Position numbers and translations under genes: made by a program
From: Podarcis liolepis
Taxonomy: Eukaryota
Reading direction: 5' to 3' (one strand)
NCBI GenBank assembly: GCA_965112155.1
Contig: OZ218100.1
Length of the DNA stretch: 64,000 nucleotides
The notes under the pieces: model-generated
Database searches by the model: none
Told to the model about the DNA's origin: nothing
What the model saw: the letters and a program-made list of their open reading frames with translations, nothing else
In this document: positions 1-44,600 of the stretch, piece after piece
How the letters are laid out: each line of letters starts with the position of its first letter
Position numbering within the stretch: position 1 is the stretch's first letter

Positions 1-102
1 GGGACTACAACTCCCATGATCCCTAGCTAACAGGACCAGTGGTCAGGGATGATGGGAACTGTAGTCCCAAAACATCTGGAGAGCCGAGTTTGCCTACGCT
101 TG
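1..102. mobile_element. hAT-type palindromic MITE (truncated by window edge)
   Basis: GGGACTACAACTCCCAT...ATGGGAACTGTAGTCCC hairpin, same core as 39416-39553. Confidence 0.75.
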
Positions 103-770
103 AACTAGAGCACCCAGTAAGGAAAGGAAGATCCTCACTGATGTCTTATCAAAGGTCCATTGAGCAGAGCCCCAGACCCAGGTCAGTTCTTAGCCATTCT
201 GCTCTCCCAGTTCAAAGAAAGAGATTAAGGATCACACAAGTAATAGCATATTCTTACTGGGCAGGGAGACGGGAGAGGCACTAGAGACCTCTACAGACTG
301 CTTCTGTCCTTGAACCCAGATGTGTAGTGAAATACTGCGATAAGTCACAAATGCACTTGGGGGATTTTGGTATTGGTATAGTTTCTGCCGCCCTAGAATG
401 GCCACATCCACATAATATATTTTAAGGCACATTTAAAACACATGGCTTCACCCAAAGAATCTTGAGACCTCTAGTTTAGCCCTTACAGAGCTACTTTCCA
501 GCACCCTTAGCAAACTACAGATCCCAGGGTTATTTGAGGGAAGTCGTGTCTTTTAATGTATGGTCTGAAGGTGACCAATGTTTAACCAATGTTTTTTTGC
601 TTAAAATAATAGAATCCAATAGTATCATGGAACTTTTGAACTGTTTTAATATTGTATTTTTAAACTGTTGTAACCTGCCCTGGGACCTTATCATGAAGGA
701 CATGTAAGAAACGGAATACATAAAAAACAACACCACGCACACACACACTTCTGCAAACACAATCAAGTTG

Positions 771-908
771 CAGCATTTCTCAACCTGTGGGTCCCCAGAT
801 GTTGTTGAACTACAACTTCCATCACCCCTAGCTAGCAAGGCCAGAGCTCAGGGATGATGGGAGTTGTAGTCCAACAACATCTGGGGACCCACAGGTTGAG
901 AACTGCTG
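771..908. mobile_element. hAT-type palindromic MITE
   Basis: Long TIRs CAGCATTTCTCAACCTGTGGGTCCCCAGATGTTG / CAACATCTGGGGACCCACAGGTTGAGAACTGCTG. Confidence 0.85.
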
Positions 909-1212
909 AAAGCTGCATATAAATCTATGCCACCTCTGAATGATTCACATGTTAATCTGGTTCTTGGTATTTTGGCTATTCTCAATCAGTTTCTAAAAGG
1001 CAGGAATGATGTTTTTGTGGTTTACATTATGAATAGAGACAAAGCAGATGATTATTTAGTTCCATATAGAATTTAATGTGTGTGAGATTCTGTCATTCTT
1101 CAAAAGCTGTTCTTTCATATACTAAATAAGCAGGATACAAGAGGATAAATGCAGTGTACAGAGAAGGTATGTAAAAAGTCATAAGACTACAGCAACATCT
1201 TTTGCATATTAC

Positions 1213-1317
1213 CATTCGTGTTCCACAGTCTGTGAAGTTGGTCTTAATGCTGAATATGTAGAGGTTTCCTACTTGAGTACCATGACATGCTGGGTCATTA
1301 AGGTGTAAATCAGAGAC
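1213..1317 (-). CDS. ZP-domain protein (uromodulin/GP2/tectorin-like), ZP-N exon VSDLHLNDPACHGTQVGNLYIFSIKTNFTDCGTRM
   Basis: LHLNDPxC...F.I.....CGT signature; acceptor TTTTCCTTTGCAG|, donor ATG|GTAAT; in frame with the 2624-2718 exon. Confidence 0.85.
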
Positions 1318-2038
1318 CTGCAAAGGAAAAACCTTTCTTTTTCCTTTTAATTTTACAATATAATTCTCAACACAATTTTAGATTATGTTTACAATTGCAC
1401 TAGCTAATCAGCATATCCTTGGCCCTGACACCTGTCATTTCACTTGGCAGCATGGCATTATTGCATGAAAAATGCCTCATTTGCCTTCTGGGACTCACAG
1501 TCATCAAGATACAATCTTACCAAGTGCCAACCTGCCTTCTATCGACAGGTACATTCTATCATGTGATAGTAACAATTTTGGGGGGAGTGAAAATCCATTC
1601 ATGTGATGTAGCCTATGATCCCATTAGGAGCTGGACACAGAGAAAGCAGCAGCGTGAGAAAAATCTACCCCTCTTTCAAAAGGCACTTCCCCTGAATTTT
1701 CTGAGTACAGCTAAAATATTTCATGGTTGAAGGCACTAAGAAAGGCCTGGCATTTCCCTAATATTTTGATGTGGTGTAGTCTGCAATGTACCAGCTCACA
1801 TTTTATCATCGTCTGGCTGGCATCTCCCAGAAATTAGAATATAAAGCATATGACGATGAAGATAGCGGAAGAGCTCTACAGATAAGATCTGGATAAATAA
1901 TGTTCCCTTATGCTACAGTTCTAGAAACTAGAGGCAACAAAATGGGCTATTAGCCACAATTCTTTATGAGCTCCTCTGGGTTATTGAATTGTAATAAGAA
2001 AAAGGAAAGCATCCAGAAAACCCCCCAAATGAGATATA

Positions 2039-2280
2039 CAGTGGTACCTCAGGTTAAGTACTTAATTTGTTCCGGAGGTCTGTTCTTAACCTGAAACTGT
2101 TCTTAACCTGAAGCACCACTTTAGCTAATGGGGCCTCCTGCTGCTGCTGCGCTGCCGGAGCACGATTTCTGTTCTCAACCTGAAGCAAAGTTCTTAACCT
2201 GAAGCAATATTTCTGGGTTGGCGGAGTCTGTAACCTGAAGCATATGAAACCTGAAGCGTATGTAACCCGAGGTACCACTG
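2039..2280. mobile_element. Tc1/mariner (Tigger-like) non-autonomous element
   Basis: TIRs CAGTGGTACCTC(A/G)GGTTA, flanked by TA on both sides. Confidence 0.85.
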
Positions 2281-2623
2281 TACAACAAAATGTTGCACTG
2301 TGGAGTATTCCTGTTCAGGGGGCCAGCCATGCACTTCCATTCTCACCTCCTCACCACCACACACAACAGTCAGCATTCATGGGAACTCAGTCCTCCTTGG
2401 GCTGTCTTTGGGTCCCCCCCCCCCCACTCCTTGTTGGGTCCCCCCCCATTTTTTTTGTTTGCAATTCTACAGACTTCAGGGTCCCTCCCGTGTGTGTGTG
2501 TGTGTGCAGTGGTTGCTAAATATGCATTGGCACTCACACATCCAAAATAAAGGGGATTACCTCATGTTAAAGTGACTGAATGGATTTTTTTTAAAATTAA
2601 AATTTTAAAATCACAGTACTTAC

Positions 2624-2718
2624 TAATATTGGAGGGTTCTTTGACAGGAAGAATGCACTCGGAATTTCTACTTCAATCAGGTCCTTAGTACATATGATGG
2701 TCTCGTTGATTTCTGTGT
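2624..2718 (-). CDS. ZP-domain protein, exon encoding ZP-N start (TEINETIICTKDLIEVEIPSAFFLSKNPPIL)
   Basis: Acceptor TTTTACATACAG|, donor TTA|GTAAGT, phase 1 to 0; C-x4-hydrophobic-E-V-x-I pattern typical of the first ZP-N strands. Confidence 0.8.
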
Positions 2719-6765: not shown

Positions 6766-9700
6766 AGAAAGGGTTTCAGTCTTAGATGTATAATGCAAAA
6801 TAAAAAGTTGAACAAATGGAACAAACATATGAAAAATCTGATTAAATAATAACTATTCTACGAAAATATTCTAATAAAAATATTTCTAAAACATTTATAG
6901 TGTTTTTTAATGTAAAATGTAGAACAGAGTGGGCTATTTTATGGATTCAGCAGAAACTGTAGATTTTTTAAATGGAGTGACACCTGTGTTATTCTAAAAT
7001 CAGTAATAAAGAAGCCCTATGAATTATAAGAAAAATATGTTGTTGTGTATCCAAGGATCAGGGAAAATATTGTTGTGTCTCTTTATTCACTATCAAACTT
7101 TATCTGGAGGACTTATGCCCAAAGGCTGGTGGGCCAGCTTTCAAGAATTTACCCTACTTGTCCACATGTAAAATGATGGGATCAGAATTACTCCTGTTAT
7201 CATGTTCCCAGAGTTTTCTTGAAAGAAGCTAGAGCTTTGCAGCTGTCAGTCTGTCTGTAAAGCTGCCAAGAAGCAGCAGTTAATTTACGGGAAGGGAAGA
7301 GAGTGCCAGCAAAAATCCTGAACAACAGCATGTGCAGAATTATTCTGAACATGACCGTGCTGTACTGATGGAAAGTGACTAGGCACAATTCATCTTAGGA
7401 TTCATGTACCTTTAACAGTTGTGTGATAGCATGGATGTCAATAGATGTAGCCTCTCTCACCCTTGAAGCATTGGAGCACAGGGGTTCCAACAGAATTTTC
7501 TGTACCCAGTCCACTGTGTGGAGTTTAGGCCCTTTGTCCTACTTGCAAAAGAGGAGAGAGATTTGCATAACATTTACAGATGCATTGTGTCATATGCAAA
7601 TTTGTAACCTCTTTTGCAGGTGGATTGGAGGGTCCAAAAATAAATCTTCTGCCACACACAACAAAAAATGTCTGACAGAGAATGTCAGCAGGTGAAGCTT
7701 TCCCCAATTGTATGTCCATACTAAAAAATGCTTAACCTGTTGATTTTTAGCTGCCATTCAGCTCTTAAAGGCACAAGAACCCTGCGTTCCCCCAATGCCA
7801 ACCCTAAACCTACACTGCGACCCTGTACTCTCTTACCTGGGAATAAACCCTATTAAACAGCAAAGACTCAATAGTAGACATGTATAAAATTCAGCTGCAA
7901 TAGTGAATTCTTGATGCATGTCTGGTCTTTAGCTTTAAATGTGCTTTGCAAAGTTTTCCCATTTGTTATTTTGCAGTGGGCGGGATTCTATAGCATCCAC
8001 CTGCACTTCTTGTGTGGCAGGATTTGCAGAAAATAACTTCTAGAGTACTATACTAAAATTAACCCATCACCAGGAAACGTGCATCTCTAGTTTCTAGGCA
8101 AAAAAGGAAGGGCACACTATAGAAATTTCAAGGAGTACAAAATGAGACAGAAGCAGGAAAAGTGCATTAAGGACAAAGTGAAAAGAGTGGATCCTAAGGA
8201 CCCAGGGATTTCTATCACCTGGCGTTCAAACTCCTTAATAACCTTTCTGACCTCACTTATTGTCTAAAACACTGAAAGATGGGAGCAGCCAAGTTGGCTC
8301 ATCTCACATAAATTGCTTAGAAGGGAGCCTGCAGAATTTGCTTCATAACTTTCCAGGAGGGATCAATTCTACATCCCCCCCCCCCCAAAGACAACTCAGA
8401 CTAACTTGTGTTCCCTCTTCTGAACTTTCACAAATGTTAATGGCCTAGGAGTCCTCTCCTTGAATGCAAGACTAGAGAATCATTTTTTGTCTGTCACGGT
8501 CACATTCCCACAAAGGTAATCTTTGTGATGGTGAGAGGCACCAAAGCCAGTGCTGGAAAGTTTGCAGCATTATAGAGTGCTGTGTGTTTGTTTTCGCCCT
8601 AATCCCTCCATCTCATTTTCTCCCTTGCCACAAGTCTGAGCTGATTACTTGCAGAGGATTTCCCCTCCTCCTTTCTTCCCTCCATTTTTATTTGTGCCCC
8701 TCCTCCCACTTTTTGCTCCCTCACTCTTTCCCCCAGCTTACATGAAGGAGGGCTGGCATTTGTGTTTCTTAGGGTTCATCCTTGCTCCTCAAGAAAGCTT
8801 GCATTCCTTAGACCAGGAAAATTGGATTTTAAAATGTCACCCAGATACTTTTTCTCTCAGTTTAGACTATTATTAAAACTGGGGACATCAGTAGTAGCCT
8901 AAAATCACAAGCCTTACATGGTAGTTTATTATAACCAGCAAATTTATATTAACCTTTTAAAGAACGTATTTCAATAAGTGATACTTACCCATTGAGGCAA
9001 GCAGTTTCAGGAATTTCCGACCAGGTACTTTAACAGTGTATTATTTATTCTAACATCTATTAACTGTCACAAAGCTGGTGTGCAAATCCAGGCCAATTCT
9101 TATTACTAACATTGATTCAATAGAAAAGGTGACTTTGTAATTTTTAAAAAACCTGTTAAGATAGATACTGAACCTTTGCCATAACGCATAGAAACATCAA
9201 AGTGTGCTGCAAGCTATGTTTTCAAAGCTACATTTTGATAAATGCATTTAAAGTGCAGGTATAAGACAAAGGTAAATTTATAATTGGACCAATAATATCA
9301 CAGAAGATCTAGTCACTGTTTCAAAGTAGATTCCTCCTGAGAGAACTCACCCTCCCCAGTGTTGGTCCCGCTTGAAGACATCAGCAGAGAAGCCACCAAG
9401 AGGGCAGAGAAGGGCATTTTGCAAGGTCCCATCACAACCGAAATTTCCTCAAAGAGCACCAGCCAGGAACTTGAACAGAGACTTCCCGCCCTTTCAACTT
9501 GGTCTCTTGGATGAGGGTTTGGATGAGGGTGTGGTGGTAAATGGTTCCTCACGGCTTTTACCCTGTGGTGTTTCTCCCCTCCCTTTCTAAACTTGAATGC
9601 CTCCTGCCTGAAGACGCAAGGGTGTTCTGGGTCCAACAATAGGATTCCACAGAGATAGCCACTGGAGACCATGATTACTCTTGCCAAAGTCACCACCTAT

Positions 9701-17052: not shown

Positions 17053-17149
17053 TCATTCAAGTTCTTCAGTTTCTGCTGAGAAAAGGTCTGCGAGATCAGC
17101 TACTGTTAACACAGAGGCCTCCGACTGCTTCATGGAAGAACTAGAGTGG
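17053..17149 (-). CDS. SHPRH: SHPRH exon 30 (last coding, TGA at 17055-17053)
   Basis: [32 protein letters not shown]. Confidence 0.93.
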
Positions 17150-41605: not shown

Positions 41606-44600
41606 TATCATGTTGTTACTGTTCAAAAGATTAGCTGTTCAAATATGCAATGTCATCCACCAAGAAATTCCTTTACTGGAGGTGAGCAGGTATTCACAGC
41701 AGTATCGCTTTGCAAACAGCTGAAATGGTCCTGCTTAATATTTCTTAATGTCAATAAAGACCGTTTTACAGCTTCTAGACCCAAGGGCAGACCCTCTGCC
41801 TGTTTAGATAGGCACTGAAACAGACTAACATCTTGCTTTCAACTATCAAGCAGTGTAATATACATGATGACCTAGTTCTTTAATCTGTCATAATACATTG
41901 TGTTAAGAGATTAAATTATAAAAAAGTACTAAGCTTCATAGCAAGTCAAACCTCCGGCAGATAAAACATTTAGTAACACCTCCAAGGGAAACTATATTAG
42001 TCACTTCAGAAGAATAAATGTTAAGGTCAAATTTATATGCCCGCGTGTTAAAAGGGTATACAAGTAGGCTCTTTCATTTGCTTTTATGTTGTACATGTTC
42101 AACAGGGTCATACCCAAGCAACTCAAGTTCATTCTCACCTTTGCAGTGGTGCATTCTACCATCTGTGCTTCATCCAGGCAAATTCTCCACCACTCCACAG
42201 CTACCAAGGGACTTGGGATAGCCATATAACGCTTCTGGTTCCTGAAACGGCGTCCATCTTCACTATTACTGTGAGGAATGTCCACATAGTTCAGTTCACT
42301 ACGAAGGACATCATATGTGGTGATCACTACTTCCTGCTCTGCCAAGATGTGAGGCTGCAAGAAACCATGCTTCTTCACTCCTTGATAAACCTGCATAAAT
42401 TTGGGCACAATGCACATGAGAGAAAGCATTGACAATTAAATTGAGGGAGGGGGAGAGACACAGAACACTGAGAAGCTGAAAATTTCCTGCCTTGTAGGAT
42501 TTTAACACTATGATGATGATAATATAAATCAATCTATCCTGCAAAAAAATCTTAAGGATTACTACCATTATCAAAATGTACTGAAATGCTGGGCATTTAT
42601 TTTAACAACTACCCAGGAGTGAAAATATTTTCATTCTACTCACTTAATAACTGCATTTGCTACACTCTACCTCAACATAGTATACTTCCCCTATTGGCTG
42701 CTGTGAAACAACACCTTTTCTTACCAACACTCGAAGAGAAGATGATCTCACGTGCCTGTTAATCTCATCAACCCACTGGTGGCAGATAGAACTTGGAGAG
42801 ATTATCAGAGTAGCTCCTGTTGGAACTGGTTTCATTGCTACAAGGCAATGGGGACAGTAAAAGGGCTTGATCTTTAGATTTTCTTCTTTGTAGTTCACAC
42901 ACTCAGCATGCTGCCACAGGTGGCAGTTCAGGCACTGCACACGGGCCTTATAGTCAACCAAGCCAAGCTCACCACATATGCATTCAAAGCGATAATCAGA
43001 GGTATTGAATGGAAAAATAGAACCAGGATGTGGTACAAAAATGCTAGTGTGTTCTTGAGAGGCTGGAGACTGGCCTTCTGAGTTGTCTTGCTGCTCTTCA
43101 GCTTCATCATCTTTTTTAGAAATGTCAGTAGAATACGTTTTGTTTTTTGAAATAGGCCTATTTTCTTGCAAGTCAGAAGTTCTATGCAGAGAATCTTCTT
43201 GCATTATCCAGCCCTTAGGATCCATTTCTGATTTTGTATTATCTTTGCTTCTTGTACAGTAATCATGCTCTTCTGCTGTGATGTCTACTGCCTGAGATAG
43301 TTTAAGACCATTTGGATAGCATGTGCCCTCATCTCCCAATTCTTTGGTTTCATTCTTATTTTCTGGTGAATTTTTCTTCTGAACCCTAGCTGAAGTTTTT
43401 ATTTTCTAAAACAAACAAATAAAATAAAATAAATTTATTTTGCTTTTTCAGCTTCATAAAAACACTCTGGATTAAATCAAACACTTAATTAGGAGGCACA
43501 AGGGAAGGGGAGCTGGAAAAGTCCCAATGTGCATGCTGCATTCTGTGCATGTTCGGAACAAAATACACTTTCAGGATACTAAGTAGACTTTTACAAGACT
43601 TTTTAAAGGGAGTTCCAAACAAAGAAACACACACTCTTACTAGGGGTTGCCATCCCTGCTCTGTTCACCAACCCCTTTGCCCTTCCCACACACCTAACCA
43701 ACCCCACCGCCCTTTTATATCTCAACCCTTACCTGCCCAACTACTGTGTGAAGGGCTTTCCCCATTAAACTCTGCTACAGCATCCCACCCCTTCCAATAA
43801 ACAGCTCACTGATAGGTTGCCTATCAGTGGCCATGCAAATTGCAGAGTGTTGACATCTTACATTTTAATGCATATAGGAATATATATATATAAATATGTG
43901 TGCGTGTGTATACACTGTTATACATTTTCAGTTCTTTTTTGTCCTCTAATTCAGCACGGCAGTTTAACACTGAGAAACTACACCCAAAACTACAATGCAA
44001 CACATCTGTTATTCATTAAACAGTGTAATAGCATTACACCCAAGAGATCTACTGCACATTATAAGTTCATTCATTCTCATTATCAGCCATTGGGGTTCAA
44101 ACCCAGTTCTCCCTGGCCTAAATTGCATGCAATTATTTCAACCCATTAAAATGTTCAGGGATTGATATGAAGATATCTCACAACAACTTTTGAGACTACA
44201 GTCATTAAAGCAGATGGTGGAAAATATCCAATGGCAAATCCAGATAAGATTTCCTACACAGCGATTACTCCCTGAATTCTATCAGCTCTTGTTCAATTGA
44301 CTTAGCTGCTCTGTTCTCATTTGCTCCCATTCCCAAAATTACTATAATGGACATGTATCAAAACACTTAAATAGAAATTATTCCCTCCATGGATTAAAAA
44401 AAACTCCCAGGTTACCTCTTTTTTTAATTTATTACAAAATTTCTGTTCCTTGTAGTTTCTGCCCAGCTTGAAAGAACCAGCAAGACCATGACCTTTGACC
44501 TGTTCCACTACCTTCTCTGCAATTAATTTTTCCAGAGTCCTTTTAAGAATGCGACGGTTTCTGTGTGTGTCATACTTGTATATGGCATGGACATACTTAA

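Follow-up and report, generated by a model that had tools for sequence, protein, structure and literature searches.

A deeply conserved vertebrate ZP-module gene beside SHPRH in the lizard Podarcis liolepis: predicted filament-forming protein, probable repeated loss and zebrafish spinal cord expression

Gene structure and genomic context

The window analysed here is a 64,000-nt stretch of the Podarcis liolepis genome (G000:C3:65782001-65846000), which was read together with its left flank (L001, G000:C3:65772001-65782000). Across both, a ZP-module gene with nine coding exons was identified on the minus strand, with eight introns that are all GT-AG. Translation of the nine exons, combined with tblastn, gave a stop-free frame of 377 aa, and the predicted protein is identical at 373/377 positions to the Podarcis RefSeq model XP_028579438.1, automatically named "GP2-like". 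Coding exon 1 (9351..9432) carries the ATG, a signal-peptide-like N-terminus and a GT donor in phase 1; it was located by tblastn with XP_028579438 (93% over aa 1-27) and shows a hydropathy peak of 2.15 at aa 8-18. Exon 2 (2718-2624, 95 nt) has an AG acceptor and a GT donor, is entered in phase 1 and left in phase 0, and was supported by splice sites, tblastn and translation. It encodes aa 28-59, with the start of ZP-N, Cys37 and the sequon at N32. Exon 3 (1317-1213, 105 nt, AG/GT ends, phase 0-0) encodes aa 60-94, comprising the ZP-N core with Cys70, Cys90 and the sequon at N86. Intron 3 fills positions 1..1212 and continues beyond the left end of the window. The remaining exons, all on the minus strand, were placed in the left flank by tblastn: exon 4 (L001 9819-9659), exon 5 (8400-8265), exon 6 (7139-7045), exon 7 (6255-6087), exon 8 (3215-3098), which contains the furin site and the external hydrophobic patch (EHP), and exon 9 (2343-2171), which encodes the transmembrane (TM) helix, the tail and the stop.

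A first-pass annotation, made from the letters of the window, had described exons 2 and 3 as two minus-strand exons with good splice sites that join in frame. Its coordinates were right, and the peptide that it quoted was reproduced letter for letter, with its three Cys and both sequons, NET and NFT. It had also remarked that exon 2 is invisible in the ORF track; this exon lies within a 47-codon stop-to-stop frame, so such a track would miss it. Leftward extension into L001 recovered the further ZP exons, furin site and TM tail expected of such a gene, with no stop in frame.

The neighbouring gene, SHPRH, ends on the same strand with its last coding exon and stop at 17053..17097 (motif scan), with SNF2 and PHD Pfam matches at 42647-43405. 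This end lies ~7.6 kb upstream of the ATG of the ZP gene. The FBXO30 coding exon and the first exon of EPM2A were found 23 kb and 33 kb left of the window, respectively, which gives the gene order EPM2A-FBXO30-[ZP gene]-SHPRH. Thus, the proposal of a uromodulin/tectorin-type ZP-module gene just downstream of SHPRH holds in the Podarcis liolepis genome. Nine of the 12 matches from a protein search of this genome are the exons themselves; the other three are pieces of distant paralogues, the nearest of which is 42% identical over 57 aa. Additionally, 35 matches came from a ZP-C family search of the genome, and one of these lies 4 kb beyond the left end of the window.

Transcript evidence and isoforms

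Four sequencing runs (X2, X5, X19 and X21) were compared with exons 4-9. Contigs from run X2 join exons 7-8-9 and exons 4-5 at the predicted sites, and a contig from run X5, which belongs to a different study, also joins exons 4-5 (both putative RNA runs, depth 2-6). Overall, the spliced contigs link five of the downstream exons. Exon junctions were not found over exons 4-9 in the raw RNA runs X19 and X21, of which 6% and 12% were read. The 2624>1317 junction is present in the RefSeq isoform X1 models; it was not seen in the reads, which were compared over exons 4-9. A pseudogene is ruled out by the stop-free frame together with the spliced contigs. The gene is intact, present in a single copy, and encodes a ZP-module membrane protein of 377 aa.

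RefSeq isoform X2 models of 342 aa (P0135, P0137 and P0142, from two Podarcis annotations) omit the exon 3 cassette in frame. The skip takes out Cys70 and Cys90, the inner cysteine pair of ZP-N, and the resulting isoform probably would not polymerise normally.

Domain architecture and conservation

The ZP-N pattern recognised in exons 2 and 3 was borne out by profile searches. Exon 3 alone matches the Pfam ZP-N model with E 9.5e-5 and 23.1 bits, slightly below the 24.7 cut-off, and the full-length orthologue passes the cut-offs for both ZP-N (PF23344, 55.9 bits against 24.7, aa 37-129) and ZP-C (PF00100, 100.3 bits, aa 156-283). These are its only Pfam domains, and ZP-N begins ~10 aa past the signal peptide. 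Downstream of ZP-C, a furin consensus RTKR is located at aa 290-293 and the EHP at aa 301-308, followed by a TM helix at about aa 326-350 (hydropathy peak 2.59), a basic stop-transfer stretch and a tail of ~25 aa. The signal peptide and the TM helix were both called by hydropathy.

In an alignment of 29 orthologues, all 10 cysteines were found in every sequence, including C37, C70, C90 and C126 of ZP-N and the six of ZP-C. The R-x-[KR]-R furin consensus, the FxF motif and the EHP core (a GPI triplet) are likewise present in 29/29, and five N-glycan sequons are retained in 27-28 of the 29. Conservation is highest in the interdomain linker (mean 85%). The cytoplasmic tail has a mean conservation of 61%, with a motif shared by 25/29 orthologues from chimaera to lizard. 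Such a conserved tail (exon 9, L001:2343-2171) is unusual in a shed ZP precursor; the lamprey tail is longer and different.

The passages of PMC7737619 covered here define the cleavage site, EHP, internal hydrophobic patch (IHP) and FxF of polymerising ZP proteins. All four elements align to those of GP2 and uromodulin (UMOD), and the lizard protein has the sequence features of a polymerising ZP protein. The filament formers GP2, uromodulin and ZPD lead its 8 PDB sequence matches (E 6e-30 to 5e-24), in agreement with Foldseek, and both sequence and fold matches place these three above endoglin and betaglycan. Among the PDB sequence matches, similarity to ZP2, choriogenin H and ZPD is only weak. 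The AlphaFold model, with a mean pLDDT of 53.6, is poor and served the fold search only. In the ESM Atlas, generic ZP clusters alone were recovered, the nearest automatically named ZPLD1 (score 0.97).

These data also bear on a different kind of function, that of a non-polymerising membrane co-receptor comparable to betaglycan or endoglin, which would bind a ligand in the cerebrospinal fluid (CSF) and signal or traffic through its conserved tail. The true TM helix, the tail motif and the isoform that lacks two ZP-N cysteines would suit such a role. However, the invariant furin consensus, EHP and FxF, and the ranking of uromodulin, GP2 and ZPD above both co-receptors, argue against it, and we consider it very unlikely.

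Phylogenetic analysis and family assignment

A tree was built from 171 sequences, of which 146 were kept for coverage of the ZP module and 25 dropped, in quick mode with SH-aLRT support only; its rows contain no named ZPLD1, TECTB or egg-coat proteins. The 25 family rows form one clade (SH-aLRT 100, stem 0.68) with lamprey basal, short internal branches and species-tree order where resolved. Uromodulin-type rows with EGF and D8C modules (P0269, P0217 and P0298; Pfam on 24 rows) and the TECTA-type row P0215 fall outside it. The si:dkeyp-110a12.4 orthogroup appears as a single-copy clade that includes Latimeria H3A0M4 and gar, both so named. This zebrafish placeholder name is borne by coelacanth, gar, cichlid, seahorse and Trematomus members, and the zebrafish gene ENSDARG00000087784 is the orthologue by the name projected onto these clade members. 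On this sequence evidence, the gene is a member of its own ancient, slow-evolving, unnamed vertebrate-wide ZP subfamily.

Orthology with GP2 or UMOD was rejected, as the lizard protein has no EGF or D8C modules, belongs to the separate clade and carries a TM helix rather than a GPI signal. The resemblance is nevertheless extensive: ZP-N and ZP-C, the 4+6 cysteine pattern, a linker of similar length, IHP, FxF, the cleavage site and EHP are common to both, UMOD and GP2 are the best PDB matches, and the polymerisation mechanism is likely shared. Against this, UMOD and GP2 possess EGF and D8C/D10C decoy modules plus a GPI signal, whereas the lizard protein has a TM helix and a conserved tail in their place; identity is ~30%, and clade, locus and tissue all differ. 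The database name "GP2-like" is a best-hit label. TECTA orthology was also discarded, since the NIDO, VWD, C8 and TIL repeats are absent (Pfam) and the TECTA-type row lies outside the clade.

ZPLD1 (cupulin) and beta-tectorin are inner-ear matrix proteins retained in mammals, and consist of little more than a signal peptide, a ZP module, a furin site and a membrane anchor. This minimal architecture is like that of the lizard protein, and ZPLD1 is the automatic name on the nearest ESM Atlas clusters, although the zebrafish orthologue of the lizard gene marks spinal cord cells. No ZPLD1- or TECTB-named proteins occur among the homologue matches listed. A further relative, ZPD (PDB 28yj), is an avian and amphibian egg-coat homopolymer with a uromodulin-like, homopolymerising ZP module that matches the lizard protein with E 5e-24. 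It is 24-32% identical to it in structural alignments and, in contrast, is an egg-coat protein present in birds; the zebrafish gene is not an ovary marker in one shallow atlas. The passages of PMC6262864 covered here classify egg-coat ZP genes and do not mention SHPRH.

The first-pass annotation had called the gene unnamed. It does carry only placeholder or automatic names, but a RefSeq model already exists. Published main texts gave no mention of si:dkeyp-110a12.4 or of the gene accessions, within a coverage that leaves most subscription literature outside. Automatic annotation has already modelled the gene with a wrong name, and the subfamily has apparently been left unstudied. Recognising it corrects the names "GP2", "uromodulin" and "alpha-tectorin", which mislead on more than 100 database entries.

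Distribution across vertebrates

A full-length protein search returned 168 proteins, 120 of them listed. The listed matches cover lizards, an amphisbaenian, turtles, crocodilians, frogs, salamanders, lungfish, coelacanth, bichir, sturgeon, gar, bowfin, teleosts, chimaera and skate; other searches added sharks and lampreys. Identity to the lizard protein is 49% in lamprey and 62% in chimaera, and ~60% from sharks to lizards. Bit scores reach 655 in turtle and 601 in alligator, and the lowest of the 120 listed is 466. The first-pass annotation had left a choice between loss in mammals and gain in reptiles. A reptile-specific gain is ruled out by the lamprey, cartilaginous fish, bony fish and amphibian orthologues, while the mammalian side stands in that no mammalian member occurs among the matches listed; the apparent loss also extends to birds and snakes.

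Birds, mammals, snakes and caecilians account for none of the 120 full-length matches listed (of 168), none of the 67 named among 74 exon-4 matches (7 are unnamed) and none of the 9 named among 29 short matches. The sole named snake match, from Candoia, is 31% identical and falls in a VWD/TECTA-like clade as a paralogue. The unnamed sequences compared are mostly teleost- or salamander-like, with five amniote-type fragments (P0247, P0330, P0331, P0332 and P0344). Independent loss of the gene in mammals, birds, snakes and perhaps caecilians is therefore probable from these protein comparisons; with five unassigned fragments and 48 unlisted matches, it falls short of proof. The opposite reading is that the absences are an artefact of annotation or search and that the gene persists in these groups. 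The partial listing, the five fragments lacking a species assignment and the fact that absence was judged from protein matches rather than from the DNA of other genomes all leave room for it. Yet the absent groups contributed nothing to the three sets of matches just described, and snakes are represented in the collection, where their named match is a distant paralogue; we regard persistence as improbable. P0247, an unnamed amniote-type copy of exon 7 on a Logan contig, would weaken the case for loss if its source proved to be a bird, mammal or snake.

Two possible causes of loss were considered. Limblessness does not fit, as the amphisbaenian Rhineura and the skink Lerista retain the gene. 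Astrocyte-dominated glia were rejected as the cause in snakes; in the passages of PMC7457009 covered here, astrocytes predominate in birds and mammals, and no systematic difference between snakes and lizards is reported, so glial type cannot account for all losses. The locus terms are absent from the main text of PMC13005343, on squamate gene loss.

Truncation, frameshifts or fragmentation affect several Antarctic notothenioid models (Dissostichus, Trematomus and Chaenocephalus; P0185, P0190, P0181, P0201 and P0321), which also depart from the linker sequence that is invariant elsewhere. These possibly represent a further loss under way, or poor assemblies.

Expression of the zebrafish orthologue

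The expression data are zebrafish mRNA marker tables from published supplements, and the link from the lizard gene to ENSDARG00000087784 rests on the projected name si:dkeyp-110a12.4 rather than on Danio sequence. In the supplement of PMC8517238, the gene is the first-listed marker of cluster 13 at 24 hpf (logFC 1.94). This cluster is labelled neuroblast; its co-markers include cdx4, shha, enkur, urp1, nkx2.9 and foxa2, which we interpret as a mark of posterior neural tube with floor plate. A tail somite/presomitic cluster also has the gene among its markers, at a lower level (logFC 0.61), and in two whole-landscape clusters the gene is non-significant. It appears in only one of the 17 marker sheets of this supplement (24 hpf) and is absent from the other 16. 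A row in the supplement of PMC10665197 places it in the top-marker table for "posterior spinal cord progenitors", with a fraction expressing of 0.17. Furthermore, in the supplementary tables of PMC10387610, it occupies row 8 of the spinal ependymo-radial glia (ERG) sheet, with expression in 79.8% of cells in the cluster vs 12.4% elsewhere (log2FC 3.48, adjusted p 4e-159) and gfap, foxj1a and hox13 genes as neighbours; it is also found in lateral floor plate. The available expression thus points to the spinal neural tube and the lining of the central canal, not to an egg coat, gland or inner ear, the settings that the first-pass annotation had named as possible.

ZP proteins commonly build apical matrices of the egg-coat, gland, skin and inner-ear type, and one of these could be the main site in lizards, with spinal expression secondary. 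The lizard spliced contigs come from runs that bear no tissue label, and the ear table of PMC9851615 (12 of 16 supplement files searched) records 69 expressing cells. That entry is, however, non-significant (q 0.42), and 11 of the 14 supplement files of PMC6363392 on the lateral line gave 0 matches, by which a lateral-line or ear marker was rejected. In the sheets of PMC8517238, from a shallow atlas in which adult spinal cord is not among the tissues, no sheet out of the 15 for adult tissues has the gene as a marker; ovary, kidney, skin and intestine/pancreas are among these tissues, and the gene is not a liver marker either. It also lies outside the grouping of the 30%-identical uromodulin- and TECTA-type rows. 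A main site outside the spinal cord accordingly seems unlikely to us.

Proposed function

The reading that we favour, with a probability of about 0.55, is that the subfamily protein is made by cells lining the spinal central canal, cut by furin and polymerised there into an apical filament matrix. In uromodulin, as described in the passages of PMC7737619 covered here, cleavage frees the EHP, the linker swaps into the next subunit and the filament grows at the membrane. Since every element of this switch is conserved, we infer the same route for the lizard protein: cleavage at RTKR would release the EHP, the interdomain linker would swap into a neighbouring subunit and filaments would extend at the apical membrane. 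Because N-terminal branch domains are absent, the filaments may form a bare glycosylated scaffold that lines and supports the narrow lumen of the canal. A functional precedent, though not an orthologue, is the luminal ZP matrix of C. elegans LET-653, which has PAN and mucin domains; the abstract of PMC4970718 describes a nematode ZP protein whose apical matrix keeps a narrow tube open.

Several observations weigh against canal filaments. The tissue evidence consists of zebrafish mRNA tables with an orthologue linked by name, and the weaker tail somite/presomitic signal and the ear-table cells lie outside the canal. In addition, raw runs X19 and X21 lack exon junctions, and a shed filament leaves the conserved cytoplasmic tail unexplained. 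A central canal is found in birds and mammals, and a Reissner fibre in most of them; as these groups apparently lack the gene, it cannot be universally required.

Tectorins in the ear couple matrix to sensory cells. By analogy, the filaments might more specifically tie the Reissner fibre, as a tectorin-like tether or coupling layer, to floor-plate or ependymal cells, or to CSF-contacting neurons. Expression in floor-plate and foxj1a-positive ERG cells agrees with this, but the fibre persists in birds and mammals, groups apparently without the gene. The available passages of PMC12485901 show fibrils that anchor the fibre to floor-plate cells and leave the nature of the attachments open; on the other hand, these fibrils are visible as Sspo-GFP, and "zona" occurs 0 times there. 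A tether is in our judgement a long shot. A broader and rather doubtful extension of the canal-filament reading, to which we would give somewhat more credence, is a "spinal tectorin". This would be a 500-million-year-old ZP filament that lines the canal lumen and links ERG with the Reissner fibre and the flow of CSF, retained in vertebrates whose tail spinal cord is dominated by radial glia and often regenerates, with separate losses in mammals, birds and snakes.

ZP matrices have been described in egg coats, urine, gut and inner ear. If canal filaments are correct, the spinal central canal would be added to these sites, and the subfamily becomes a candidate component both of the canal's apical matrix and of the attachments that hold the Reissner fibre at floor-plate cells. 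If the mammal, bird and snake losses hold, they would make a clear example of a matrix gene of the central nervous system that was lost several times despite its deep conservation.

Additional observations at the locus

At least four genes with a ZP-C domain stand in tandem on another contig (G000:C5:48651187-48839688). Within the lizard gene, intron 2 (window 2035-2285) and intron 3 (L001:9383-9630) contain copies of one abundant short interspersed repeat, with at least 40 genome copies elsewhere at 92-97%. The acceptor at window position 2718 starts Podarcis exon 2 two residues earlier than in the Lacerta and Zootoca models (377 vs 375 aa). At the 3' end, a contig of run X2 covering L001:1823-2170 carries 3' UTR beyond the first polyadenylation-like hexamer at 2080, and further hexamers of this kind are located at L001 1365, 634 and 433.
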